64,000 bases of DNA. It comes from an uncultured Spirochaetota bacterium. Its GTDB lineage: Bacteria; Spirochaetota; UBA4802; UBA5550. A model generated the notes under the pieces. That model saw only the letters and a list, made by a program, of their open reading frames with translations. It did not search any database and was not told where the DNA came from. The position numbers and the translations under genes are program-made. This document shows, piece by piece, positions 13,366 to 55,405 of this stretch. Within the stretch, counting starts at the first letter, position 1, and every line of letters begins with the position of its first letter. Where the stretch lies: positions 7,007 to 71,006 of the forward strand of contig CALMRZ010000065.1 of the NCBI GenBank assembly GCA_937872225.1, given 5' to 3'.

Positions 13366-13398
13366 ATCTCCTCCATAAATATATATCCATAGTATTCA

Positions 13399-13450
13399 TG
13401 CAGGAGTCATCAGCCATCGGGCAGTTAACGGTGAACTCCATCACCTTTGG
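13399..13450 (-). ncRNA. Fluoride riboswitch (crcB RNA motif) aptamer
   Basis: The minus strand reads AAAGGUGAUGGAGUUCACCGUUAACUGCCCGAUGGCUGAUGACUCCUGCA, containing GGnGAUGGnGUUCnCC, AACUGCC and CUGAUGAnUCCUnC of the consensus. The 3' CUCCUGCAU can pair with the downstream AUGGAGGAG covering the RBS, a translational ON-switch design. Confidence 0.7.
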
Positions 13451-13540
13451 CACGGTGATCATTACATATTCAGGTTAACACAAAAACATAATAGACATTT
13501 ATATGTCAAGAACATATTCATTACGTGACCACTGTTTGCA

Positions 13541-43483: not shown

Positions 43484-43750
43484 TCACCCGCCTAACGCAA
43501 CATCAATCCAGGTAATGGCTTCATGGGGGCACGCGGATATGCATCTGCCGCAGGCGTCACAGAGTTCGTAATCGAACACTATGCATTCCGGGCTGCAGGG
43601 TACGTCCATGGCAATGCAGTATTTGATGCATTTCGCGCAGCAGTTGCCGGAAGATTCATAAATCGCCTTTAGCGGACAGGCCTCAATGCATAGGTTGCAC
43701 TTTTTGCATTTTTTCGCATCTACCGCCGGCAGTCTTCTTTCAGCCTTCAT
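43484..43750 (-). CDS. 2x[4Fe-4S] ferredoxin
   Basis: CKKCNLCIEACP and CDACGRCISACP motifs. Confidence 0.7.
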   Translation of the reverse strand: MKAERRLPAVDAKKCKKCNLCIEACPLKAIYESSGNCCAKCIKYCIAMDVPCSPECIVFDYELCDACGRCISACPHEAITWIDVALGG

Positions 43751-44102
43751 GGCACCCGTGCTCGTGGGCGTGGCAGGAAATTCCTGAATCCTGAAGCGTG
43801 CCGGCGAGCCACTGCTCCGCTACCTTTTTAACGTCACCGGAGCATCCGCGGAGGACCCTGATGCCGTGGCTGTTGAGGACGTTTACCGCGCCCTCGCCCA
43901 TGTTCCCGGCGAGCATCATGGTAACTCCCATCTGCGACAGGGTATGCGCGATATCGGACTTGCATCCGCATCCTGCCGGCGACATGACCTTTTCTTCATT
44001 AACAATCTCATTGTTTTCATTGGTGGTGAATACGGTGAAATATTCACAATGCCCGAAATGAGCATCGACGTTGTTCCGGTTTGATGGCAGTGCTATCTTC
44101 AT
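43740..44102 (-). CDS. NifX/NifB-C-terminal-like dinitrogenase FeMo-cofactor-binding-domain protein
   Basis: MKIALPSN...DAHFGHCEYFTVF matches the family start (MKIA.p...v..HFG.a..f). Confidence 0.65.
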   Translation of the reverse strand: MKIALPSNRNNVDAHFGHCEYFTVFTTNENNEIVNEEKVMSPAGCGCKSDIAHTLSQMGVTMMLAGNMGEGAVNVLNSHGIRVLRGCSGDVKKVAEQWLAGTLQDSGISCHAHEHGCHEG

Positions 44103-44341
44103 GTAAAACTCCTTATAAATTTAAACATTGATGGTTACTGCGTCATGGTACATTCAATTTTGGGCATATGCCCATAATCTGTCAAGAGGAAAATTTCTTC
44201 TTGAATTTCAAAGAGATTGACATAGTATATATCAATATTTATTAGTGTTTACAAAAAATAGTAGAAACAACTAATTTAATTTGTTTAGTATATCACAACC
44301 TCTAAAGCAGACCTTGGGAACACACATGAAAAGGATTTGTC

Positions 44342-45151: not shown

Positions 45152-45293
45152 GTTTGAGCATGCACTGCCCGCATATATTGATGGTTAACGGCGCAGTGAA
45201 AGAACAGCCCTTTCCGCCTATTTCCCGATTTTATCATGGCAGCCCATGGTCTTTTCCTGTACAGGAAAAGACCATGGGCTATAGTTTTGTACA

Positions 45294-46610
45294 ATGAATA
45301 ACAGCGGAGAAAAAAATATCATCCTCAACAGCATCGCCGACGGGGTCTTCACCGTTGATATGGATTTCCGGATCACCTCCATGAACCGAGCAGCGGAGGC
45401 TATTCTGGGAATTGAAGAAAAAGACGCCGTGGGGAGGCTCTGCTTTGAAATTTTCCATGCCAACATCTGCGAGCATTCCTGCGCTTTGAAAGAAACGTTG
45501 GACACCGGCAATAATATAATCAATAAAACGATATATATCGTCAATTCCGGCGGGGAGAGGGTCCCCATCAGCGTAAGCACCGCGCTTTTAAAAAATGGGA
45601 AAGGCGATGTAATCGGCGGTGTCGAGACATTCCGCGATATCACCGCTATAGAAACACTCCGCAAGGAAATCGAATCGAGCTACACCTTCGAGGACATTGT
45701 CAGCAAAAACAAAGTCATGCGCGAGCTGTTCGGCATTCTCCCCGACATCGCGACAAGCGACAGCTCGGTCCTCATAGAAGGCTCCAGCGGCACCGGGAAA
45801 GAACTTATCGCCCGGGCCATCCATTCGTTGAGCAATAGAAAGACAAAACCCCTGGTCGTCATCAACTGCGCCGCGGTCCCCGACAATCTCCTTGAATCGG
45901 AATTATTCGGCTACAAGGCGGGCGCCTTCACCGACGCGAAAAAAGACAAGCCGGGAAAAATAGCCCTGGCCGAGGGAGGCACGCTATTTCTCGACGAGAT
46001 AGGCGAAATATCGCCCGCAATCCAGGTCAAGCTCCTCCGCTTCATCCAGGAGCGCGAATACGAGCCGCTGGGCGGCGTTTCCACCGTTAAATCCAATGTA
46101 CGAATAATCGCGGCCACGAATAAAATACTCACGGAAGAAGTCCGCGGCGGCAATTTCAGGGAAGACCTCTATTATCGGATCAACGTTATCAATATAAGAC
46201 TTCCTGCCTTGAGAGAACGAAAAGAGGACATCCCCTTCCTTATCAAACATTTTATCCACAAGTTTAATGTCCTCAAGGGCAAAAATATCGAGGGCGTGAG
46301 CGATGATGTCATGAACATACTCATGAACCATGACTATCCCGGCAATATCCGCGAGCTGGAAAATATTATCGAGCATGCCTTCGTCCTCTGCCGTGAACCA
46401 TATATCCGTCAGCTGCATCTTCCCAACCATTTTAAAAATATCGTAACGCCGCTTCACGACAATTTGACCCTCGAAGAAATGGAGCGAATTTATATACTCA
46501 AAGCGCTGGAAAAAAATTCATGGAACAGAAAGAATACGGCTAAAGACCTCGGCATTGACACAACCACACTCTGGCGGAAGATAAAAAATCTCAAGATTGC
46601 TAAAGAATAA
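45294..46610 (+). CDS. Sigma-54-dependent transcriptional activator (PAS sensor, AAA+ sigma-54 interaction domain, Fis-type HTH)
   Basis: Walker A GSSGTGKE, GAFTDA (GAFTGA variant), ESELFGY, and the C-terminal HTH NTAKDLGIDTTTLWRKI. Confidence 0.85.
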   Translation: MNNSGEKNIILNSIADGVFTVDMDFRITSMNRAAEAILGIEEKDAVGRLCFEIFHANICEHSCALKETLDTGNNIINKTIYIVNSGGERVPISVSTALLKNGKGDVIGGVETFRDITAIETLRKEIESSYTFEDIVSKNKVMRELFGILPDIATSDSSVLIEGSSGTGKELIARAIHSLSNRKTKPLVVINCAAVPDNLLESELFGYKAGAFTDAKKDKPGKIALAEGGTLFLDEIGEISPAIQVKLLRFIQEREYEPLGGVSTVKSNVRIIAATNKILTEEVRGGNFREDLYYRINVINIRLPALRERKEDIPFLIKHFIHKFNVLKGKNIEGVSDDVMNILMNHDYPGNIRELENIIEHAFVLCREPYIRQLHLPNHFKNIVTPLHDNLTLEEMERIYILKALEKNSWNRKNTAKDLGIDTTTLWRKIKNLKIAKE

Positions 46611-46615
46611 CCGGG

Positions 46616-46664
46616 CATTGCGAAATGCAATACTTAACATGTAATCACATTGCACTTTGCAATA
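46616..46664. promoter_or_regulatory. Two palindromic sites, CATTGCgaaaTGCAAT and ATTGCActtTGCAAT, about 190-235 bp upstream of the sigma-54 promoter; candidate enhancer-binding (UAS) sites
   Basis: Inverted repeats ATTGC-N4/5-GCAAT read directly. Their position is appropriate for bacterial enhancer-binding-protein sites. Confidence 0.35.
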
Positions 46665-46852
46665 ATTATAGTGTCATTCAAACATCACCGAGAACCATTA
46701 ACCGGTAATCAAGACTTCCAGAAAATTTTTTTTCACTCCAGCAGGCAATCTACCTTCCTGTTTATATAAAAACCCCGAAGAATATGCGTTTATTCAATGA
46801 AATCATTTTTACAGATGAGCTGATTGCATATTTATAACAAAAATTCATTCCC

Positions 46853-46868
46853 TGGCATGATAGTTGCT
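46853..46868 (+). promoter_or_regulatory. Sigma-54 (-24/-12) promoter TGGCATgatagTTGCT
   Basis: GG and GC sit at canonical spacing (consensus TGGCAC-N5-TTGCA). It lies about 12 nt upstream of the first ATG of the 46881 operon, so there would be a very short or no leader, which adds some uncertainty. Confidence 0.5.
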
Positions 46869-46880
46869 TTATAGTATAGC

Positions 46881-47303
46881 ATGAAGAACGAATTGATAGC
46901 GGTACCGGTATTCCAGGAACGTGTGTCTCCGCTGATGGATGTATCCAACAGATACATGATTTATGAAACGGAAGACGGCAGGATCAAACAGAGGATCGCC
47001 ATATCTCTGAACGCTGACGGTGAATCCCAGCGGGTGGAAAAGCTGAAAGAAATCGGCGTTAACACGATCATCTGCGGAGCGGTGAGCGGCTACATAGCTC
47101 ATCTCGTTAGTGATAGGGGAATGCGCCTACTCTCTATGATATACGGCCCCATTGACGAAATCATAACGAATTATCTTCAAAACACCCTCGGTTCATACTG
47201 CTCTGGCGGGGGGTGCAACGGCCGTAAAAGACAACGGCGTGGCCAATGCGGCAGGGATTCCGGGAGGGCGCGTCAAAAAAATGCAAGCGGGGAAAGAAAA
47301 TGA
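46881..47303 (+). CDS. NifX/NafY-like FeMo-cofactor-binding-domain protein
   Basis: MKNELIAVPVFQERVSPLMD...RYMIYETEDGRI...IICGAVSG is the family pattern. The Gly/Arg-rich C-terminal tail may reflect a frame problem or an overlap with the next gene. Confidence 0.55.
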   Translation: MKNELIAVPVFQERVSPLMDVSNRYMIYETEDGRIKQRIAISLNADGESQRVEKLKEIGVNTIICGAVSGYIAHLVSDRGMRLLSMIYGPIDEIITNYLQNTLGSYCSGGGCNGRKRQRRGQCGRDSGRARQKNASGERK

Positions 47304-47659
47304 AATTAGCGGTGTCAACCGGCGGGAAAAATCTTAATGCGCCAATGGACGAGCGGTTCGGCCGCGCCGTCGGATTTATTATTTTCGATACATCGACCGG
47401 TTCCTATGAATATATCGATAACGAAAAGAACATGGATTCCGCCCAGGGAGCGGGCATCCAGTCGGCGAAAACGGTCATCGATGCCGGCGCGGCAATCCTC
47501 ATCACAGGCAACGTCGGCCCCAAGGCGTATGCCGCCTTGGCCACCGCGGGAATCGAAATATATCTCAAGAACGGAGGTACGGTGGGCGAAGCGATTGAGG
47601 CGTATCGTTCCGGCTCACTGTCAAATACGCCGGAGGCGAACGTTGAGGGCCACTGGTGA
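47300..47659 (+). CDS. NifX/NafY-like FeMo-cofactor-binding-domain protein (start taken at MKLAVSTGG)
   Basis: MKLAVSTGGKNLNAPMDERFGRAVGFIIFD...ILITGNVGPKA. Confidence 0.65.
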   Translation: MKLAVSTGGKNLNAPMDERFGRAVGFIIFDTSTGSYEYIDNEKNMDSAQGAGIQSAKTVIDAGAAILITGNVGPKAYAALATAGIEIYLKNGGTVGEAIEAYRSGSLSNTPEANVEGHW

Positions 47660-47698
47660 GTACTGTTTCAAATCTGGTGTTCATATAAGGAGGCGTAT

Positions 47699-48172
47699 AT
47701 GGATAAATCGACGGTATATGATGAGTTCAAAGGCTATAATTGCTATCCTCTTGGAACGGGCGAGGAGATGATTCGGGCAAGGATGGTTGAGTTGTTTGAT
47801 AAAATCATCAAAAAGAATGAAACCTGTCTTGTCAAGGCGCGGGATAAGGGAATGGAAAAGTTGATGTCAAGGATACTGGCGGTTAAGGCGCGGATGGAAC
47901 GCATGCGGAAAGAAATGACCCATGTCGAACCGAACGTTGAATACAAGTTTGAACCCCTGTCTCCCTCTGACGAGGAAATGCTGAAGGAAATTGACGGTAA
48001 AATGGAAGAGATAATCCAGCAAACAATCGACGCAATCGAACCTTTGACCTGCATGGAAACCGACATGCATATAAGCGACCGGTTTGCCATGATGGATTCT
48101 TCCCTGCGGGAAATCGAGAATCTCTGCCACAGACGCATGGCAATATTTAAAAAGCTGCGCGTGTATGGATAA
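47699..48172 (+). CDS. Hypothetical protein (157 aa)
   Basis: A GGAGG RBS precedes. No motif recognised. Confidence 0.5.
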   Translation: MDKSTVYDEFKGYNCYPLGTGEEMIRARMVELFDKIIKKNETCLVKARDKGMEKLMSRILAVKARMERMRKEMTHVEPNVEYKFEPLSPSDEEMLKEIDGKMEEIIQQTIDAIEPLTCMETDMHISDRFAMMDSSLREIENLCHRRMAIFKKLRVYG

Positions 48173-48239
48173 AAATCCCGTAGCGGATTGAATGTAGAAG
48201 GAATTCAAAAAGAAATACTTTATACGGAGGTATTAGCAC

Positions 48240-48587
48240 ATGCCACGAGGAGATAGAACGGGGCCCGAAGGAATGGGACCAATGACGGGCCGGGGCGCCG
48301 GGTTGTGCCGGGGAAACGATACTCCCGGATATTTGAGCGCCGGTGGGGGCCGTTTCGGCGGATCCGGCAGGATGGGAGGCGGATTCGGCGGAAGACGCAG
48401 GGGATGCCGTAATATGTTTTATGCTACCGGGCTCCCCGGCTGGATGCGTTTCAATGGTGATACAGCCGGTTCCCGGGAAAACGAAATACAGCATCTCAAA
48501 TCACAGGCTGATTATTTAAACAGATCTCTCGATGCCGTTAACAAACGGTTGATGGATATTGAGAAAACAAGTAGCGCTTCAGAATAA
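48240..48587 (+). CDS. DUF5320-family protein
   Basis: MPRGDRTGPEGMGPMTGRGAGLCRG...C-terminal coiled coil, the hallmark start of DUF5320. Confidence 0.65.
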   Translation: MPRGDRTGPEGMGPMTGRGAGLCRGNDTPGYLSAGGGRFGGSGRMGGGFGGRRRGCRNMFYATGLPGWMRFNGDTAGSRENEIQHLKSQADYLNRSLDAVNKRLMDIEKTSSASE

Positions 48588-48674
48588 GCCTTCTTACCAT
48601 AGCGCCAGGCGCTCCCTGATGTCGGATTATTGATATCGGGGAGCGCTGAATTTATTACAATTTAAGGAAAGTAC

Positions 48675-49520
48675 ATGATAACAAAAATTACCGTCTTATG
48701 TGAAAACAGCGTTATTGTACCTGCCCCACCCCTCATCGGCGAGCATGGGTTCTCTTGCCTTATCGAATCTGAAGACGCCACCCTCTTTGATACCGGCCAG
48801 GGATTCGGGATCGAGAACAACATGGGCAAAATGGGGAAACAGTTCGATGCAATAAAACGTATCGTCCTCAGCCATGGCCACTTTGACCATACCGGCGGGT
48901 TGCTCACCGTGCTACAAAATCGGAAGGAGAAGACGCCCGTTTACCTTCATCCTGATGCCTTTAATGACAAGAAGGCAGTCATTCCCCTGCCGCAGAACAC
49001 CATTGAAATGCCCATCGGCATGAGGGCCTCTAAAGAAGAATACGAAAAGGCCGGTGCCGATTTTAAGTTCATCAATGGGTTCGTAAAAATCACGGATTCC
49101 ATATCGGCCCTGTCTGATGTCAAGCGTCCGTCTGACTGGAAAACATGGGATACCCGTCTCAAACAGAAGATCAACGGTGGAATAAAAGACGATCCTTTCA
49201 CCGATGACCTTTCATTGCTTATCAATACCGAATCTGGTCCAGTGGTGTTACTGGGCTGTGCTCACGCCGGCATCGTCGAGATACTGAATGACCTGTCGGA
49301 AAAAACCGGGAACACGGAATTCCACGCTGTCATTGGCGGAACACACCTTGAAAGCGCGCCCGAGGAGTACGTGGCCCTTGCCATGGACACGTTGAGAAAA
49401 TTCAAGGTGAAAAAAATAGCCGTATCCCACTGCACCGGACTTAAAATGGCCGGCAGGTTCGCCGCAGAATTTAAAAACGAGTTCGCCAACGCTTCAGTCG
49501 GCAGCGTTTTCGAGTTTTAA
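48675..49520 (+). CDS. MBL-fold metallo-hydrolase
   Basis: HxHxDH motif LSHGHFDHTGG and a downstream His/Asp pattern. Confidence 0.7.
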   Translation: MITKITVLCENSVIVPAPPLIGEHGFSCLIESEDATLFDTGQGFGIENNMGKMGKQFDAIKRIVLSHGHFDHTGGLLTVLQNRKEKTPVYLHPDAFNDKKAVIPLPQNTIEMPIGMRASKEEYEKAGADFKFINGFVKITDSISALSDVKRPSDWKTWDTRLKQKINGGIKDDPFTDDLSLLINTESGPVVLLGCAHAGIVEILNDLSEKTGNTEFHAVIGGTHLESAPEEYVALAMDTLRKFKVKKIAVSHCTGLKMAGRFAAEFKNEFANASVGSVFEF

Positions 49521-49534
49521 TGGGAGTCGATCAT

Positions 49535-50392
49535 ATGAATATAGCCATCGCAAGCGGGAAAGGAGGCACGGGGAAAACGACCATTGCCATGTCCCTGGCG
49601 TCCTGCTACGCAAGGAATGGCATGAATGTCGCCCTTCTCGACTGCGATGTAGAGGAGCCGAATGTCAATCTTTTCCTGAAAGCTGAAATCGAGAAGACGG
49701 AAACGTTCAGTGTGCTTGTCCCGCATGTTGACGGATCCCGCTGCAACGGCTGCGGAGAGTGCGAGCGTATATGCGCCTTCAGCGCCATCGTTCTCGTTAA
49801 GGGAAAGCCGCTGGTTTTTAGCGATATGTGTCATTCCTGCGGCGGGTGCTTTCACGTTTGTCCCGAACGTGCGATAGAGGAAACAGATAAAGCGACTGGT
49901 GTTATTGAATCCGGTTCAAGGGACGGAATATGCTTTGCCGGCGGCAGGCTCAATATCGGCGAGGCAATGTCCCCGCCGCTCATCAGGGAAGTGAAACGCC
50001 GTCATCCCGAATCGGAAGTACGGATATTCGACTCCCCTCCCGGAACATCCTGCCCGGCGGTTGAGGCCATGAAAGACAGCGATTTTGTCGTCCTGGTGAC
50101 GGAGCCGACCCCCTTCGGTTTGAACGATTTCATTCCCGCCGCGGGCGCGGTGAGGGCGCTGGGCATCCCCTTCGGTGTTGTTGTGAACCAGGCATTTGGT
50201 GACGGTTCGATCATGCGTGAATATAAATCAAGAGGATATAACGTAATAGCGTCCATCCCACACTCCCGCGGAATCGCAGAAGCATATTCGCGCGGAGATT
50301 GTATTTCATACATTCTCGAACACTTCCGGGAAGAAATAGAAAAAATTGCAAGCCATGCGGAATATTACAATAAAAGGACCGCGCGGGTATGA
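49535..50392 (+). CDS. MinD/ParA-superfamily P-loop ATPase with inserted 2x[4Fe-4S] ferredoxin domain (CooC-like)
   Basis: Deviant Walker A IASGKGGTGKTT. CNGCGECERICAF and CHSCGGCFHVCP. Start taken at MNIAIAS. Confidence 0.75.
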   Translation: MNIAIASGKGGTGKTTIAMSLASCYARNGMNVALLDCDVEEPNVNLFLKAEIEKTETFSVLVPHVDGSRCNGCGECERICAFSAIVLVKGKPLVFSDMCHSCGGCFHVCPERAIEETDKATGVIESGSRDGICFAGGRLNIGEAMSPPLIREVKRRHPESEVRIFDSPPGTSCPAVEAMKDSDFVVLVTEPTPFGLNDFIPAAGAVRALGIPFGVVVNQAFGDGSIMREYKSRGYNVIASIPHSRGIAEAYSRGDCISYILEHFREEIEKIASHAEYYNKRTARV

Positions 50393-51264
50393 TACAGGAA
50401 CTGGTCATCATCAGCGGCAAGGGAGGCACCGGAAAAACGAGCATGGCCGCATCACTCGCGTTCCTTGCAAAAAACAAGGTCATCGCCGACTGCGATGTGG
50501 ACGCCGCAGACATGCACCTGGTGTTGCAGCCGGAAGTTAAGCAGTCAACGGTATTTGAAGTCGGACTGAAGGCTTCAATCGGCAGGGATATTTGCAAATC
50601 GTGCGGCGAATGCCTCCGGTACTGCCGCTTTGACGCCATCAGCGATGATTTTGTCGTCGACCCGATATCCTGCGAAGGCTGCGGCGTGTGCGCCCATTTC
50701 TGCCCCCATGAAGCCATTGAAATGAAGCGTCACATGTCCGGTAAATGGTTCGTGTCCGATACGCGCCACGGCCCACTCGTTCACGCGCAACTGGGCATCG
50801 CCGAAGGGAATTCAGGCAAGCTTGTCACTCTTATAAAAAAGAAAGCCAGGGAAATCGCCACCGAGAAAGGACACGAACTCGTCATTGTTGATGGCTCCCC
50901 GGGAACAGGGTGCCCGGTCATCGCCACGGTGTCGGGCGCGTCGCTGGTCCTCATCGTGACCGAGCCGACGGTTTCGGGCATGCACGATTTACGGAGGGTA
51001 TTGGAGTTGGCCCGTCATTTCAACGTCAGGACAGCAGTCTGCGTCAACAAGGCCGACATCAATCCCGATAACGTCGCTGCAATTGAGGCATTCTGTTCGA
51101 ACAACGGAATCCCCATAGCCGGAGCCATTCCCTATGACACGGACGTGACCCGGGCGCAGATCGCCGGTAAAAGCGTCGTAGAGCATTCAAATGGACAGGC
51201 AGCTCGGGCAATAAAAACAACATGGAATACTATCTCTGAAATTCTATCAGGGACCAGTCAATAA
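50389..51264 (+). CDS. Second MinD/ParA-superfamily ATPase with ferredoxin insert (paralogue of the previous gene)
   Basis: IISGKGGTGKTS, CKSCGECLRYCRF and CEGCGVCAHFCP. Overlaps the previous gene by 4 nt. Confidence 0.75.
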   Translation: MIQELVIISGKGGTGKTSMAASLAFLAKNKVIADCDVDAADMHLVLQPEVKQSTVFEVGLKASIGRDICKSCGECLRYCRFDAISDDFVVDPISCEGCGVCAHFCPHEAIEMKRHMSGKWFVSDTRHGPLVHAQLGIAEGNSGKLVTLIKKKAREIATEKGHELVIVDGSPGTGCPVIATVSGASLVLIVTEPTVSGMHDLRRVLELARHFNVRTAVCVNKADINPDNVAAIEAFCSNNGIPIAGAIPYDTDVTRAQIAGKSVVEHSNGQAARAIKTTWNTISEILSGTSQ

Positions 51265-51283
51265 AAAAGGAGAATACATTATC

Positions 51284-52150
51284 ATGTGCAACAGCAAAGA
51301 AACAGACGTATCAGCAACAGCAGCGCCCAACCGCAACAAAGACGCCGAGGACAAGGCCTCTATCAACGAGAACATGGCCCGGATAGCCCATAAAATAATC
51401 GTACTCTCCGGCAAGGGAGGGGTGGGGAAAAGCACGGTCGCGGTCAACCTTGCCGTCTCCCTCGCGGAAAAAAAGTTCAAAACCGGCCTTCTCGACATAG
51501 ACATTCACGGCCCCAGCGTGCCGAAGCTCCTTGGAATTGACGGCGGACAGGTAATGGGGGCCAGAAACGGCAAAATGACGCCGGTTGAATACAATGAATG
51601 CTTGAAGGTTATATCAATAGGTTTTCTGCTACAAGATAATGACACCGCGGTCATATGGCGCGGCCCCATGAAATACACGGTGATCAAGCAGTTCCTGGCC
51701 GACGTCGATTGGGGCAATCTTGACTATCTTATCGTCGATTCCCCTCCCGGCACCGGTGATGAGCCGCTGTCGATATGCCAGCTTATCGAAAACGCGGACG
51801 GCGCGGTCGTGGTCACTACCCCCCAGGACGTGGCCCTCATCGACGTGCGCAAGTCAGTCAATTTCTGCAAACAGCTTCACATGCCGGTCATTGGCGTCAT
51901 AGAGAACATGAGCGGCTTTACCTGTCCCCATTGCGGAAAGGAAACGGACATTTTCAAAAACGGCGGCGGGAAGAAAATGGCGGAAGACATGGGCGTGCCG
52001 TACCTCGGGGAAATACCTATCGAGAGCCATATCGTGGCCAGCGGCGACAGCGGCAATCCTTTTCATGTCAATAATAATGCGGGCGAAACGCCTGCCCATA
52101 AAAGCTTTTCGGGTATCATTAATACCATACTGCACGGAGCAAAAAAATGA
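51284..52150 (+). CDS. Mrp/NBP35/ApbC-family Fe-S cluster carrier ATPase
   Basis: VLSGKGGVGKSTVAVNLA, DSPPGTGDE, and the CxxC FTCPHCG. Confidence 0.85.
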   Translation: MCNSKETDVSATAAPNRNKDAEDKASINENMARIAHKIIVLSGKGGVGKSTVAVNLAVSLAEKKFKTGLLDIDIHGPSVPKLLGIDGGQVMGARNGKMTPVEYNECLKVISIGFLLQDNDTAVIWRGPMKYTVIKQFLADVDWGNLDYLIVDSPPGTGDEPLSICQLIENADGAVVVTTPQDVALIDVRKSVNFCKQLHMPVIGVIENMSGFTCPHCGKETDIFKNGGGKKMAEDMGVPYLGEIPIESHIVASGDSGNPFHVNNNAGETPAHKSFSGIINTILHGAKK

Positions 52151-52485
52151 AGATTGCATTACCCGTATCAGACAAGAAGTTGTGCTTGCATTTCGGTCAT
52201 TGCGAACAATTCGAGGTGTTCGACGTGGACGAAAAAACAAAACACATAACCGGGCGGGCGACCTTCAGCGCGCCGCCCCACGAGCCGGGGCTTCTGCCAC
52301 GCTGGCTCGCCGACAAAGGGGTTAAGTGCGTCATCGCCGGCGGCATGGGATCCCGCGCCGTTGCCATATTCAAGGAAAACGGCGTCAACGTCATCACCGG
52401 CGCCCAGCCTGGAGAGCCGGCGGCCATTGTGAGGGACTACCTGGAAGGCCGCCTGGTTACGGGATCTAACGTCTGCGACCACTAG
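52147..52485 (+). CDS. NifX/NafY-like FeMo-cofactor-binding-domain protein
   Basis: MKIALPVSDKKLCLHFGHCEQFEVFDVD. Confidence 0.7.
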   Translation: MKIALPVSDKKLCLHFGHCEQFEVFDVDEKTKHITGRATFSAPPHEPGLLPRWLADKGVKCVIAGGMGSRAVAIFKENGVNVITGAQPGEPAAIVRDYLEGRLVTGSNVCDH

Positions 52486-52493
52486 GCGGCGAT

Positions 52494-52775
52494 ATGGATG
52501 AGACCATTCTCGTTCTGCAGCTCGGCGACGGATTCTGCATCGAATGCGCGGCAAAGCACGCGTACAACAAAATGGTGCTGGACATCATGACGTCAGATGA
52601 CACGCCCGGTCCCGGCATCGAGTCTATGCTTGACCTGTTGGTGGACTTCCTCGAAGGCGCTGATTTCGCACAGCTTCGCGGCTCCCATGAGGCCCTTGCC
52701 GGAGTTAAAGAATCGCGATGCAGCCTGCACAGAGACGAGCATGGACATCCATGCGTATCAGTGATTAGTCCATGA
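52494..52775 (+). CDS. Hypothetical protein (93 aa)
   Basis: ORF in the operon. No motif recognised. Confidence 0.4.
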   Translation: MDETILVLQLGDGFCIECAAKHAYNKMVLDIMTSDDTPGPGIESMLDLLVDFLEGADFAQLRGSHEALAGVKESRCSLHRDEHGHPCVSVISP

Positions 52776-52803
52776 CCTGACTTGACATTACGAAGGAGCC
52801 ACT

Positions 52804-53040
52804 ATGCCAACATATGATTATCTTTGTTATTCATGCGGAAACAGATTTGAAAGCTTCCAGAACATGAGCGACCGGCCCCATGAAACATGCCCTTCCTGCG
52901 GGGGTCCGGTAAAAAGGTTGATTTCCGGCGGGTCCGGATTTATCATAAAAAGCGGCGGTAAAACGAAAACCGCCTGCGGGAGCGATGTCCCCTGCTGCGG
53001 CAGGGGCGAGCCCTGCGGAAAATCAAATGGTTGCGGATAA
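52804..53040 (+). CDS. FmdB-family zinc-ribbon protein
   Basis: [16 protein letters not shown]...CPSCGG matches the FmdB pattern (MPIYEYxCxxCGHxFE). Confidence 0.7.
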
Positions 53041-53174
53041 TATCATTAAAGGAGGTGCCTATGCCTGAAGAATTCAAGCCTGGTTGCGCTAGGCCCACGG
53101 GAGGTCCCGTGGGGGAAGAACCGGTCAAAGCAGGGCCGGAAGAGACAAATATGAAAAAGGAGGAACGAAAAGCC

Positions 53175-53786
53175 ATGGTCCAAGTTGGTAAAAAAGCGCC
53201 GGATTTTACAGCGCCGGCTTATCTCCAGGGAAAATTCGTAAACGTCAAACTCTCTGAATATCTCGGAAAGTGGACGCTCCTCTGCTTCTATCCAGGGGAT
53301 TTTACCTTTGTTTGAGCAACGGAAATTTCGGCGGTCGCCGAAAAATATCCCGAGTTCCAGAAGCTCGGCGTGCAAATTCTTTCTATGAGCATCGACAGCG
53401 TATTCGTGCATAAAATGTGGAATGATAATGAACTTTCAAAAATGGTAAAGGGTGGCGTCCCCTTCCCCATGCTGTCCGACGCGGGAGGCAGGGTCGGCAC
53501 TGCGTATGGCATCTATGACGCGGACGCCGGAGTGGAGACCAGGGGCAGGTTCATCATCGACCCGGACGGCGTGGTGCAGGGGTTCGAGGTGCTCACGCCC
53601 CCAGTTGGGCGCAACGTGGCTGAATCCCTCAGGCAGGTTCAAGCCTTTCAACTAGTCCGTAACAGCAAAGGCACCGAAGCCACACCGTCGGGATGGAAAC
53701 CGGGAAAAATGACCCTGAAGCCGGGCCCGGACCTGGTGGGCAAAGTCTGGGAGGTTTGGAAAACGAGCATGGCTTTCGACGATTGA
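53175..53786 (+). CDS. Peroxiredoxin (AhpC/Prx) with in-frame UGA at 53313-53315 replacing the peroxidatic Cys: probable selenocysteine peroxiredoxin (PrxU-like). The ORF track splits it into 53031-53315 and 53370-53786.
   Basis: ...[16 protein letters not shown][TGA][35 protein letters not shown]... is colinear with the Prx active-site FYPLDFTFVCPTEI. The reading frame is continuous across the TGA. A hairpin follows (see SECIS feature). Start taken at ATG 53175 (RBS AAGGAGG); the earlier in-frame ATG at 53031 is possible. Confidence 0.7.
53318..53348 (+). other. Bacterial SECIS-like hairpin about 10 nt downstream of the UGA: UUUCGGC-GGUC-GCCGAAA
   Basis: A perfect 6-7-bp stem with a 4-nt apical loop GGUC containing G and U, at the distance from UGA expected for SelB-binding elements. 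Confidence 0.5.
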
Positions 53787-53883
53787 TTTTTTATGTGTCA
53801 GGAGCCCTTTTCGATAAGGTTTTCCTGACACATATTTGTATTTCTTTCCTTTAAAAACTATTTAACATATAAAGTGGTATATT

Positions 53884-55041
53884 ATGGTTTGTATACATCC
53901 TATTCGTGGTAGAATCTTAATGCTTTTTATATCAGCTTTGCTGATAAATGTTATACCAGGATCCATCCTTCTTGCAAAGGATCGAAAAACGTACATAGAC
54001 TCCCGTGAATTCGCCCGTGCTAAAGTTGAAAAAATTGAACGGACCCGCGGCGAGGGCGCCGGCGCGTCCTTCGTCGAGGTGCGCGTGCACCTGCGGATCC
54101 TGGACGGCGAGAAAAAGGGACAGACCCATGTTTCCGTTTATCGCGGCGAGGACGACATGCCCCGGGACATGTTCTACCATGAGGGAGACACCGTCTATAT
54201 CGGAATATCAAAAATGCCCGAAGCTGACGAAGTGGAGCACATCTCCATATACGATGTCGATAATACTGTCGGCATCATACTACTCGCCGTAATTCTCGTG
54301 GTATCGATACTCCTCGTCGGCAGATTGCGGGGCGCCCTGTCCATGCTTTCCCTGATCGCGACAATCATCCTGATATTCTATGTCCTGATACCCATGACCC
54401 TGAAAGGGCATTCCCCCCTTCCCCTTGCGGTGGGCACTTCCCTTTTCGCGATCGTAGTAACCATTCCCATCATACTCGGTTTCAAGACAAAGACCCTGGC
54501 GGCCATACTGGGGGCCACCTCCGGGGTGCTTCTGGCTACGCTGCTCGCCCTCTTCTCGGGATGGGTCATGCACCTGTCGGGCATCGTTACCGGGGAGATG
54601 ATGACGGTTTTTTACGCTTCAACAATCGATGTCAATCTGCGCGGCCTTGCCCTTGCCGGCATCGTTATCGCGGCCCTGGGCGCCATCATGGACGTGTGCA
54701 TCTCCATCGCGTCGGCAACGGAAGAGATTTTCCGTGTACACCCGGAGATCTCGGTCAAGGAGGCGTTTAAATCAGTCATGACCGTCAGCTCCGACATGCT
54801 GGGTGCAACGGTAAACACCCTCATGTTCGCTTACGTCGGGAGCGCACTGCCCCTGGTCCTTCTCATCGCCATGCGTTTTGACCCGCAGACTCCGCTCATG
54901 ATGGTTTTCAATTACAATCCGGTGCTCTCGGAGCTGGTGAAATCAGCGGTCGGCTGTATCGGCATGTTCCTGAGCATGCCCCTGACGGCATTTATCTGTA
55001 TCGAGCTTCATAAAGGGCACAAGAGAATAGAAAATTCCTGA
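53884..55041 (+). CDS. YibE/F-family membrane protein
   Basis: N-terminal extracytoplasmic region followed by about 8 TM helices rich in Gly/Ala/Leu, consistent with the YibE/F architecture. Start uncertain. Confidence 0.55.
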   Translation: MVCIHPIRGRILMLFISALLINVIPGSILLAKDRKTYIDSREFARAKVEKIERTRGEGAGASFVEVRVHLRILDGEKKGQTHVSVYRGEDDMPRDMFYHEGDTVYIGISKMPEADEVEHISIYDVDNTVGIILLAVILVVSILLVGRLRGALSMLSLIATIILIFYVLIPMTLKGHSPLPLAVGTSLFAIVVTIPIILGFKTKTLAAILGATSGVLLATLLALFSGWVMHLSGIVTGEMMTVFYASTIDVNLRGLALAGIVIAALGAIMDVCISIASATEEIFRVHPEISVKEAFKSVMTVSSDMLGATVNTLMFAYVGSALPLVLLIAMRFDPQTPLMMVFNYNPVLSELVKSAVGCIGMFLSMPLTAFICIELHKGHKRIENS

Positions 55042-55405
55042 CATCCCCACCATTACCTGATCTCAAGCCGGCTCTCTCCAGTGCCAATAACTCGCTGGAC
55101 ATGAATTAATCTTATCAAATCGCCTTTCATAATATGAATCCTCGAGCAGTGCGACTAAGCAAGGACTATACCATGGCCTCGCTTAATTTTATATACTAAA
55201 ACACTAAAATAATTCAATTAATACTTGATTTCAGAGGCTATTTCTATTATTAATGCAAAAAAATTCAAAAAAGCATGCAGAAAATAAGATTTGATTAATC
55301 TTCAAAGCCGCGCCTGCAGTCCGGCCGCATGCCTTTGATTATTACACCTTGCAATTCGTTATATACCGATTGCCATTAATTAAACATCGATCACACAGGT
55401 AAAAT

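Follow-up and report, generated by a model that had tools for sequence, protein, structure and literature searches.

Which client is served by a sigma-54-controlled operon that is rich in proteins with nitrogenase cofactor-type domains? The question is raised by positions 45,294 to 53,786 of a 64,000-nucleotide stretch of DNA, here termed the window, from an uncultured Spirochaetota bacterium (assembly GCA_937872225.1, contig CALMRZ010000065.1). An earlier note, made from the letters alone, saw in the operon a module for handling metalloclusters, without established function and serving some other client. This description is replaced here. The region quite probably represents the OrpR/orp (orange protein) regulon of the bacterium, with the regulation, the leaderless start and the hairpin roles proposed below. 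The orp cluster and its activator OrpR have been studied in Desulfovibrio vulgaris (PMC3897727, PMC8359166, PMC6345978). The protein MrpORP transfers Fe-S clusters to the Orp3-Orp4-Orp8 complex (PMC6345978). As MrpORP matures the ORP complex, the client is at least in part the complex itself. A link of the complex to cell division has been proposed; its physiological role is still unclear.

The activator and the operon genes

The activator gene orpR (45294..46610, +) encodes a protein of 438 amino acids. The Pfam domains PAS_9 (residues 16-118), Sigma54_activat (135-301), AAA_lid_14 and HTH_8 (392-431) are located in one chain. The translation holds the motif ESELFGY and the motif GAFTDA, a variant of the GAFTGA loop (context ESELFGYKAGAFTDAKKD). 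Domains and translation confirm the PAS/AAA+/HTH activator with these two motifs that had been proposed to end at 46610. DVU2106, the OrpR of D. vulgaris, has been tabulated with a GAFTDA loop (PMC4641369). In this protein, the cysteines C52, C61 and C65 are needed, D/E54 is conserved, and the PAS domain holds a redox-sensitive [4Fe-4S] cluster, by which OrpR senses redox potential (PMC8359166). The window activator presents Cys50-X8-Cys59-X3-Cys63 and Glu52 in identical spacing. The likeness to DVU2106 was judged from these published features, i.e. motifs, domains and spacing. C50, E52, C59 and C63 are invariant across 19 aligned homologues, and the C-X8-C-X3-C motif is present in all of the 120 best database matches. 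A sequence identical to the window activator originates from Spirochaetota metagenome-assembled genomes (MAGs) and recurs in many assemblies. The activator is probably an OrpR-type bacterial enhancer-binding protein, with a redox-sensitive [4Fe-4S] cluster on Cys50, Cys59, Cys63 and Glu52 of its PAS domain.

Relatives of OrpR were collected by scanning one genome per species with a PAS-domain alignment, which yielded at least 593 encoded relatives. The best 80 of these at least 593 OrpR-like loci form the comparative set, and the flanks of 71 loci sufficed for gene mapping. The 80 loci belong to Spirochaetota (some labelled Leptospirales), Desulfobacterota, Zixibacteria, Planctomycetota, Ignavibacteriales, Synergistia and others, the taxon of each being the label on its MAG record. 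Genes were called by mapping the window proteins onto the loci. In this way, orp genes were found in 53 of the 71 loci, directly downstream of the activator gene and co-directional in 43.

Twelve co-directional plus-strand open reading frames (ORFs) lie 3' of the promoter, and genes 5-12 are tightly packed or overlapping. All gene types named in the earlier note were recovered with Pfam and NCBIfam models, while two ORFs match no family. Gene 2 (47300..47659), a single Nitro_FeMo-Co domain of about 120 amino acids, is the orthologue of the orange protein (ORP/Orp8). Its best match among solved structures is the orange protein of D. gigas (2WFB, E 2e-21), aligned over the whole length. Genes 6 (49520..50392) and 7 (50389..51264) encode two MinD/CbiA ATPases of the Orp3/Orp4 type, both with a 2x[4Fe-4S] ferredoxin insert placed after the P-loop. 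The likelier start of gene 6 is ATG 49535, which has GGAG in front. Gene 8 (51284..52150) encodes an Mrp/NUBPL (ParA) protein that aligns as the P-loop half of MrpORP to positions 1-251 of model NF041136 (393 bits). Gene 9 (52147..52485) encodes a Nitro_FeMo-Co protein with the motif CLHFGHCE and a C-terminal CDH, which aligns as the Di-Nase half to positions 265-365 (126 bits). Each score is below the model cutoff of 450 bits, their sum of 519 bits is above it, and both genes overlap in an ATGA (52147-52150). Judged by these matches, genes 8 and 9 are a split MrpORP.

Gene 1 (46881..47303) combines a weak Nitro_FeMo-Co domain with a cationic Cys/Gly/Arg tail, an IssA-like architecture. The tail comprises 37 amino acids, has an isoelectric point of 11.3, contains cysteine and looks disordered. 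Orthologues in all phyla share the NifX-like domain and the Cys/Gly/Arg-rich tail; a relative with a solved structure was not found by sequence. Gene 4 (48240..48587) encodes a DUF5320 protein with a Gly/Arg-rich N-terminal part. Gene 1, NifX-like and promoter-proximal like orp5, and gene 4 are candidates for the counterparts of Orp5 and Orp7. In loci of the Zixibacteria type (L023, L054, L078, L079), long Gly/Arg/Gln-rich repeats (GGQGGGGR-like) are located directly 3' of the DUF5320 gene and extend the Gly/Arg-rich theme of the gene 1 tail and DUF5320.

Gene 3 (47699..48172; 157 amino acids) has no family match and is conserved in spirochaete relatives; gene 10 (52494..52775; 93 amino acids), also without family match, is conserved in some relatives. 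Gene 5 (48675..49520) encodes a metallo-beta-lactamase (MBL)-fold hydrolase with an HGHFDH motif, and gene 11 (52804..53040) an FmdB-type zinc ribbon (Zn_ribbon_8) with a Cys-rich tail. In gene 12 (53061..53786), which encodes a peroxiredoxin (AhpC-TSA), an in-frame TGA (53313-53315) for selenocysteine (Sec) stands in place of the codon for the peroxidatic Cys. A hairpin whose loop reads GGUC, similar to a selenocysteine insertion sequence, follows at 53326-53343, 10 nt 3' of the Sec codon. A Desulfatiglans MAG likewise has a peroxiredoxin gene within its orp cluster (L021 12092-12529), here with Cys instead of Sec. The association of peroxiredoxin and orp genes thus recurs across phyla.

The upstream boundary of the unit is the 18-bp stem of a terminator hairpin after a ZIP transporter gene (45241..45280, +). 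At the other end, a terminal hairpin (53792..53834, +; -23 kcal/mol, z -6.6) with a U-rich tract behind it is the likely operon terminator. A further hairpin is situated inside the operon, after gene 4 (48608..48647, +; 17 bp, about -31 kcal/mol, z -4.3). Hairpins of unrelated sequence occur at the same place after the DUF5320 gene in L003, L010, L013 (with a T tract) and L017. The internal hairpin is likely a partial terminator or mRNA stabiliser, which would set different levels for genes 1-4 and genes 5-12. The proposed 12-gene operon hence stands as far as its genes are concerned; its expression may be split. A complete division into two expression units would require that the hairpin stops most transcripts after the DUF5320 gene and that genes 5-12 are expressed from another signal. 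The strength of the hairpin, its recurrence at this place and the arrangement of the D. vulgaris orp genes, likewise in two operons (PMC8359166), agree with such a division. However, the gap between the hairpin and the ATG of gene 5 measures only 27 nt and yielded no promoter-like element, the stem is followed by a tail of only moderate U content, and genes 5-12 are closely packed or overlap. Two units are considered doubtful, and one unit with a modulating internal hairpin is preferred.

Promoter and start of gene 1

The sigma-54 promoter TGGCAT-N5-TTGCT (TGGCATgatagTTGCT = TGGCATGATAGTTGCT) is located at 46853..46868 (+), with GG at 46854-55 and GC at 46866-67, 10 bp apart. All eleven specified positions of the 16-mer fit TGGCAC-N5-TTGCW, with Y at position 6. 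Chance levels for the promoter and the palindromes described below were obtained as expected counts and from 100 shuffles over the 64 kb. The pattern TGGCAY-N5-TTGCW has this single exact match in the window; 0.18 are expected, and 16 of the 100 shuffles contained at least one. In the related loci, the elements were located with a weighted -24/-12 score. The strict pattern missed most of them because many have ATGC, not TTGC, at -12. With the weighted score, nearly all loci showed TGGCAY-N5-(T/A)TGCW in the interval from orpR to the first orp gene. The -24/-12 element claimed earlier at this position is therefore retained, being the only exact match in the window and near-universal in related loci.

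The first ATG, 46881, follows 12 nt after the last base of the promoter 16-mer, and an in-frame TAG (46872-46874) closes the upstream frame. Gene 1 has no Shine-Dalgarno (SD) site, while most later genes have sites of the AAGGAG or GGAGG type or overlap their neighbour. The mapped orp promoters of D. vulgaris have the edge of the sigma-54 site at -11 (PMC3897727). By analogy, with C46867 taken as -12, transcription is predicted to start at G46879, two bases 5' of the AUG, leaving a leader of 0-2 nt (46879..46881, +). The N-terminus MKNE(L/I)(I/V)A(I/L/V)P is conserved, which identifies ATG 46881 as the real start, and gene callers begin gene 1 at the same ATG on matching assemblies.

The spacing was compared in the 12 spirochaete loci that have a gene 1 orthologue behind a recognisable promoter, including L011 and L012, in which it is not the first gene after orpR. 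In all 12, the ATG follows 11-12 nt after the last base of the 16-mer, and the start codon is always AUG. The position of the promoter about 12 nt before the ATG, from which the earlier note deduced a near-leaderless first gene, is consequently a general property of these loci. A thirteenth locus, L009, with gene 1 at a distance of 5.9 kb from orpR, gave no promoter element above threshold near gene 1. The bases between promoter and ATG are diverged and AT-rich across the spirochaete loci and contain no SD site; a purine, usually G, is present at -2 to the ATG in 10 of the 12. The diverged intervening bases, the purine at -2, the missing SD site and the conserved N-terminus together argue that the spacing is functional. 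Gaps of 12-17 nt without SD site occur in several loci of Zixibacteria, Ignavibacteria and Planctomycetota; two loci within these groups have leaders of 26-28 nt with SD site. In most Desulfobacterota, the leader measures roughly 40-240 nt and usually bears an SD site. In-frame ATGs 6 nt after the promoter, the automatic choice in five loci, were discarded, as they lie upstream of any possible transcription start.

Gene 1 is probably translated without a leader. The wider proposition combines a sigma-54-dependent leaderless mRNA (0-2 nt leader) for gene 1 with an evolutionary statement: the fusion of promoter and start codon would be an old, selected feature of the orp regulon that was replaced by SD-bearing leaders in Desulfobacterota. 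This is put forward with even confidence for and against. As gene 1 has no SD site, only transcripts started by OrpR and sigma-54, with their 5'-terminal AUG, would be translated, and read-through from orpR would not. Promoter choice would then gate the translation of an IssA-like Fe-S-binding protein. More generally, nature provides in the fixed gap of 11-12 nt a clean example on which leaderless translation from sigma-54 promoters, and a gating of expression by it, can be examined.

Alternatively, the sigma-54 promoter is real and gene 1 is not leaderless, either because it is read from a longer transcript, by read-through from orpR or from an upstream sigma-70 promoter, or because it starts at a downstream codon. 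A leader of 2 nt is not strictly leaderless, and leaders of 1-3 nt are poorly translated in E. coli, which also counts against the proposed start. No terminator separates orpR from the promoter, the palindrome region between them folding with a z of only -0.8. A weak sigma-70-like match is found at 46644-46672, but such matches are at chance level (15 found, 13.9 expected). An in-frame TTG is available at 46893, codon 5; in relatives this codon is mostly no start codon (TTG in the window and L003, CTT, ATT or AAG elsewhere), and a start at the upstream ATG is required for the conserved N-terminal strand (I/V)A(I/V)P. No SD site precedes any of the candidate starts, and a longer leader would leave the fixed promoter-ATG gap of the spirochaetes and the short gaps of the other phyla unaccounted for. 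A gene 1 with a leader is judged unlikely, and the leaderless start is maintained as the better reading.

A leaderless start from a sigma-54 promoter had been called unusual. This is fair, and a limited literature search found no described sigma-54-driven leaderless mRNA, both topics being treated separately in the papers checked. The surprise is lessened by the frequency of leaderless mRNAs in Leptospira. In Leptospira interrogans, the primary start and the start codon are no more than 10 nt apart for about 440 genes (PMC5243855). The translation machinery of the phylum can thus plausibly use such a transcript.

The activator gene itself may be leaderless too, as it has no SD site and a TATAGT (45280-45285) lies 8 nt 5' of its ATG. 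This element overlaps the ZIP terminator hairpin. Among spirochaete orpR genes, an SD site is present in few.

Paired palindromes and proposed regulation

Two exact ATTGC-N5-GCAAT palindromes are the predicted OrpR sites, i.e. upstream activating sequences: the distal site ATTGCGAAATGCAAT (46617..46631) and the proximal site ATTGCACTTTGCAAT (46649..46663). The first starts 7 nt 3' of the orpR stop codon. Their centres are 32 bp apart, 230 and 198 bp 5' of the promoter GG. Both have a spacer of N5, which corrects the N4/5 given earlier; their presence was rightly noted, and their role as activator sites is backed by conservation. They are the only exact palindromes of this type in the window, compared with 0.13 expected, and two or more occurred in 3 of the 100 shuffles. 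Since the window matches by themselves are only suggestive, the real support is the conservation in related loci. Paired TTGC-N5-GCAA sites, 32-33 bp apart, are present in 12 spirochaete loci and three others. In the spirochaetes, the pair lies 150-240 bp 5' of the promoter, or 423 bp in one locus with an insertion. The density of exact sites is 1.55 per kb in these intergenic regions versus 0.032 per kb elsewhere in the loci. In other phyla, ATTGC-N6-GCAAT takes the place of these sites in many loci. The predicted recognition helix (S/T)TLWRK(I/M)K is kept alike in the groups with N5 and N6 sites, which fits the conserved half-site. The paired palindromes are accordingly predicted as OrpR binding sites. 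The 189 bp between the proximal site and the promoter (46664..46852) are predicted to form an AT-rich looping spacer, with an A/T tract and 33% G+C versus 52% in the window.

It is highly improbable that the palindromes are operators of another regulator or a signal at the end of the orpR transcript. Their start 7 nt after the orpR stop codon, the overlap of the pair with the orpR 3' end in L001 and L013 and the difference from the experimentally defined D. vulgaris site would suit this explanation. Yet the pair keeps its 32-33 bp spacing 5' of a sigma-54 promoter even where it is 100 nt from the stop codon (L007, L017), and the same half-site stands beside OrpR genes across phyla together with the conserved recognition helix. 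As an RNA terminator of orpR, the palindromes were rejected, the folding being no better than in shuffles; Rfam gave no match in the orp region. A nitrogenase-type FeMo-co maturation module under a NifA-like activator, suggested by three Nitro_FeMo-Co (NifX/NafY-like) domains and a high partial NifA score, is rejected: the score of 342 bits stays below the 529-bit cutoff and covers the AAA+ core only, the sensor, with its Cys triad, is of the PAS and not the GAF type, the best matches are ORP and MrpORP, and no nif genes were found among the window ORFs examined, including the ten largest outside the region, as the earlier note had stated for nitrogenase genes.

Sites related to the palindromes also occur just 5' of orpR in some relatives. 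A TTGC-N5-GCAA palindrome or half-site was found there in L014 (about 25 nt) and L016 (9810), and half-sites in L006, L007, L008 and L011. This recalls the negative autoregulation of orpR in D. vulgaris. The window has no palindrome at the orpR promoter, and autorepression of the D. vulgaris type is therefore not evident in it.

Several observations weigh against the OrpR/orp assignment with its regulation. The promoter match by itself is within chance in the window. The spacer between palindromes and promoter contains no integration host factor (IHF) consensus within one mismatch of WATCARNNNNTTR, and D. vulgaris requires IHF; looping may thus rely on AT-rich DNA or on a protein with another site. 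No rpoN gene is present within the 64-kb window. The D. vulgaris OrpR site GGGCGYRTTTTGCGCCC has only the 6-5-6 geometry and the inner GC in common with the window sites, and its outer bases differ, so that the identity of the sites rests on conservation and position. Finally, no orp genes were recognised in the flanks of 18 out of the 71 OrpR-like loci that have the Cys triad (L004, L008 and L018 among the 18), and the OrpR family may consequently have other targets or unlinked operons.

The following course is proposed from the sequence, covering binding, redox response, transcription start, leaderless translation and hairpin role. OrpR would bind both ATTGC-N5-GCAAT palindromes, three helical turns apart, about 200-230 bp 5' of the promoter. 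At low redox potential, it would loop over the AT-rich spacer and open the closed sigma-54 complex with ATP at TGGCAT-N5-TTGCT. With an oxidised cluster, it would stay bound and inactive. Transcription would proceed from about G46879, the mRNA beginning 0-2 nt 5' of the gene 1 AUG, which would be used by leaderless initiation. The downstream genes would be translated from their own SD sites or by translational coupling. The hairpin after gene 4 would lower or stabilise expression across the boundary to the distal eight genes, and the hairpin after the peroxiredoxin gene would end the unit. The products would comprise the ORP complex together with accessory proteins, namely the orange protein, two MinD-ferredoxin ATPases, the split MrpORP as Fe-S carrier, the IssA-like NifX-domain protein, DUF5320 and lineage-specific extras.

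Neighbourhood, distribution and known systems

Upstream of and divergent from the orp region, genes for a fourth Nitro_FeMo-Co protein and for a 2x[4Fe-4S] ferredoxin are located (43484-44102, -), and likewise in L001-L005. Nitro_FeMo-Co and ferredoxin genes are also situated at the 3' end of the orp operon in L011 (18372-19303, +). As this pair recurs at orp loci, it is part of a wider orp neighbourhood. In the window, these genes have their own SD site and a sigma-70-like promoter (44157-44185, -). A perfect 12-bp palindrome, GGGCATATGCCC (44162-44173), is placed between the -35 (TTGACA) and -10 elements of this promoter and looks like a putative operator. The arrangement TTGACA-N6-GGGCATATGCCC occurs again in L003, about 35 nt 5' of orpR.

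Behind the orp cluster, a gene for a YibE/F-family membrane protein is located in the window (53884-55041) as well as in the spirochaete relatives L001, L003 and L007; in the window it stands after the terminal hairpin and has no SD site. A search for further OrpR/sigma-54 targets in the window gave a sole candidate, the one-mismatch promoter TGGTATagtccTTGCT (55173-55158, -). It was rejected, being at chance level and having nothing similar in relatives. The element lies about 170 bp 3' of a one-mismatch palindrome ATTGCaaggtGTAAT (region 55054-55355, -) and is followed by GAGGA and an ORF of 25 amino acids (55131-55054), convergent with the YibE/F gene. Across the window, Rfam gave a single match, a fluoride riboswitch (crcB motif, RF01734) at 13394-13454 (-), with 59 bits versus a gathering score of 34.

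The OrpR/orp system is already known and is not a new kind of system. New are the occurrence in this host phylum and over a broad range of taxa, the arrangement as one operon in which MrpORP is split and further genes are added, the AT-rich variant of the paired site, the conserved internal hairpin and the conserved spacing between promoter and ATG. In 2021, OrpR was considered restricted to Deltaproteobacteria (PMC8359166). Judged by the taxon labels of the MAGs, OrpR/orp extends well beyond this class. The sigma-54 operon thereby receives a name and a signal that is open to test, namely low redox potential, which an Fe-S PAS domain would sense, and OrpR/orp is indicated in several hundred species of Spirochaetota, Zixibacteria, Planctomycetota, Ignavibacteria and others. 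The paired ATTGC-N5/6-GCAAT provides a simple motif for regulon prediction in uncultivated groups. The recurrent links to a peroxiredoxin and an IssA-like protein may help to frame the role of the ORP complex.

The closest known system is that of D. vulgaris, in which DVU2103-2105 and DVU2107-2109 flank DVU2106 (OrpR) and dependence on sigma-54, OrpR and IHF has been shown (PMC3897727, PMC8359166). Both systems have a PAS/AAA+/HTH activator with GAFTDA and a C-X8-C-X3-C triad; in both, the second residue behind the first Cys is acidic. In both, the activator gene adjoins the orp genes, the promoters are of the -24/-12 type, and palindromes of about 17 bp have the 6-5-6 geometry. The core products agree as well: ORP, two MinD-ferredoxin ATPases, MrpORP and extra NifX-domain proteins. 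The window contains one unit of 12 co-directional genes, whereas D. vulgaris has two divergent three-gene operons around orpR. The window sites form a tandem pair, spaced by 32 bp and placed about 200 bp upstream, versus about -88 in D. vulgaris, and the half-site is ATTGC instead of GGGCGC. IHF is required in D. vulgaris, and no site for it was recognised in the window. The first gene in the window has no SD site, whereas the D. vulgaris operons are drawn with SD sites. MrpORP is encoded by two genes in the window, and the MBL-fold hydrolase, the FmdB ribbon, the Sec-peroxiredoxin and two unknown proteins are additional. The host belongs to the Spirochaetota, in contrast to the Deltaproteobacteria to which OrpR had been considered confined.

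Individual products have their own counterparts. Gene 2 shares the single Nitro_FeMo-Co domain with the D. gigas ORP (2WFB)/Orp8 over a full-length alignment; a Mo/Cu sulfide cluster is known of ORP, and the comparison here covers the sequence. Genes 8 and 9 contain the P-loop and Di-Nase domains and the CXHFGHCE and CDH motifs of MrpORP (Orp9, NF041136; PMC6345978), here in two overlapping genes. Gene 1 resembles the thioferrate storage protein IssA of Pyrococcus furiosus (PMC5524996) in a domain of the same IPR003731/Nitro_FeMo-Co type and a Gly/Arg-rich cationic tail. The tail is shorter, with 37 versus 70 amino acids, and does not have the aromatic and proline-rich character of IssA; the likeness is a lead and no claim of membership. 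The leaderless mRNAs of Leptospira interrogans (PMC5243855) come from the same phylum; the paper draws no link to sigma-54, whereas in the window the start would be set by the -24/-12 element.

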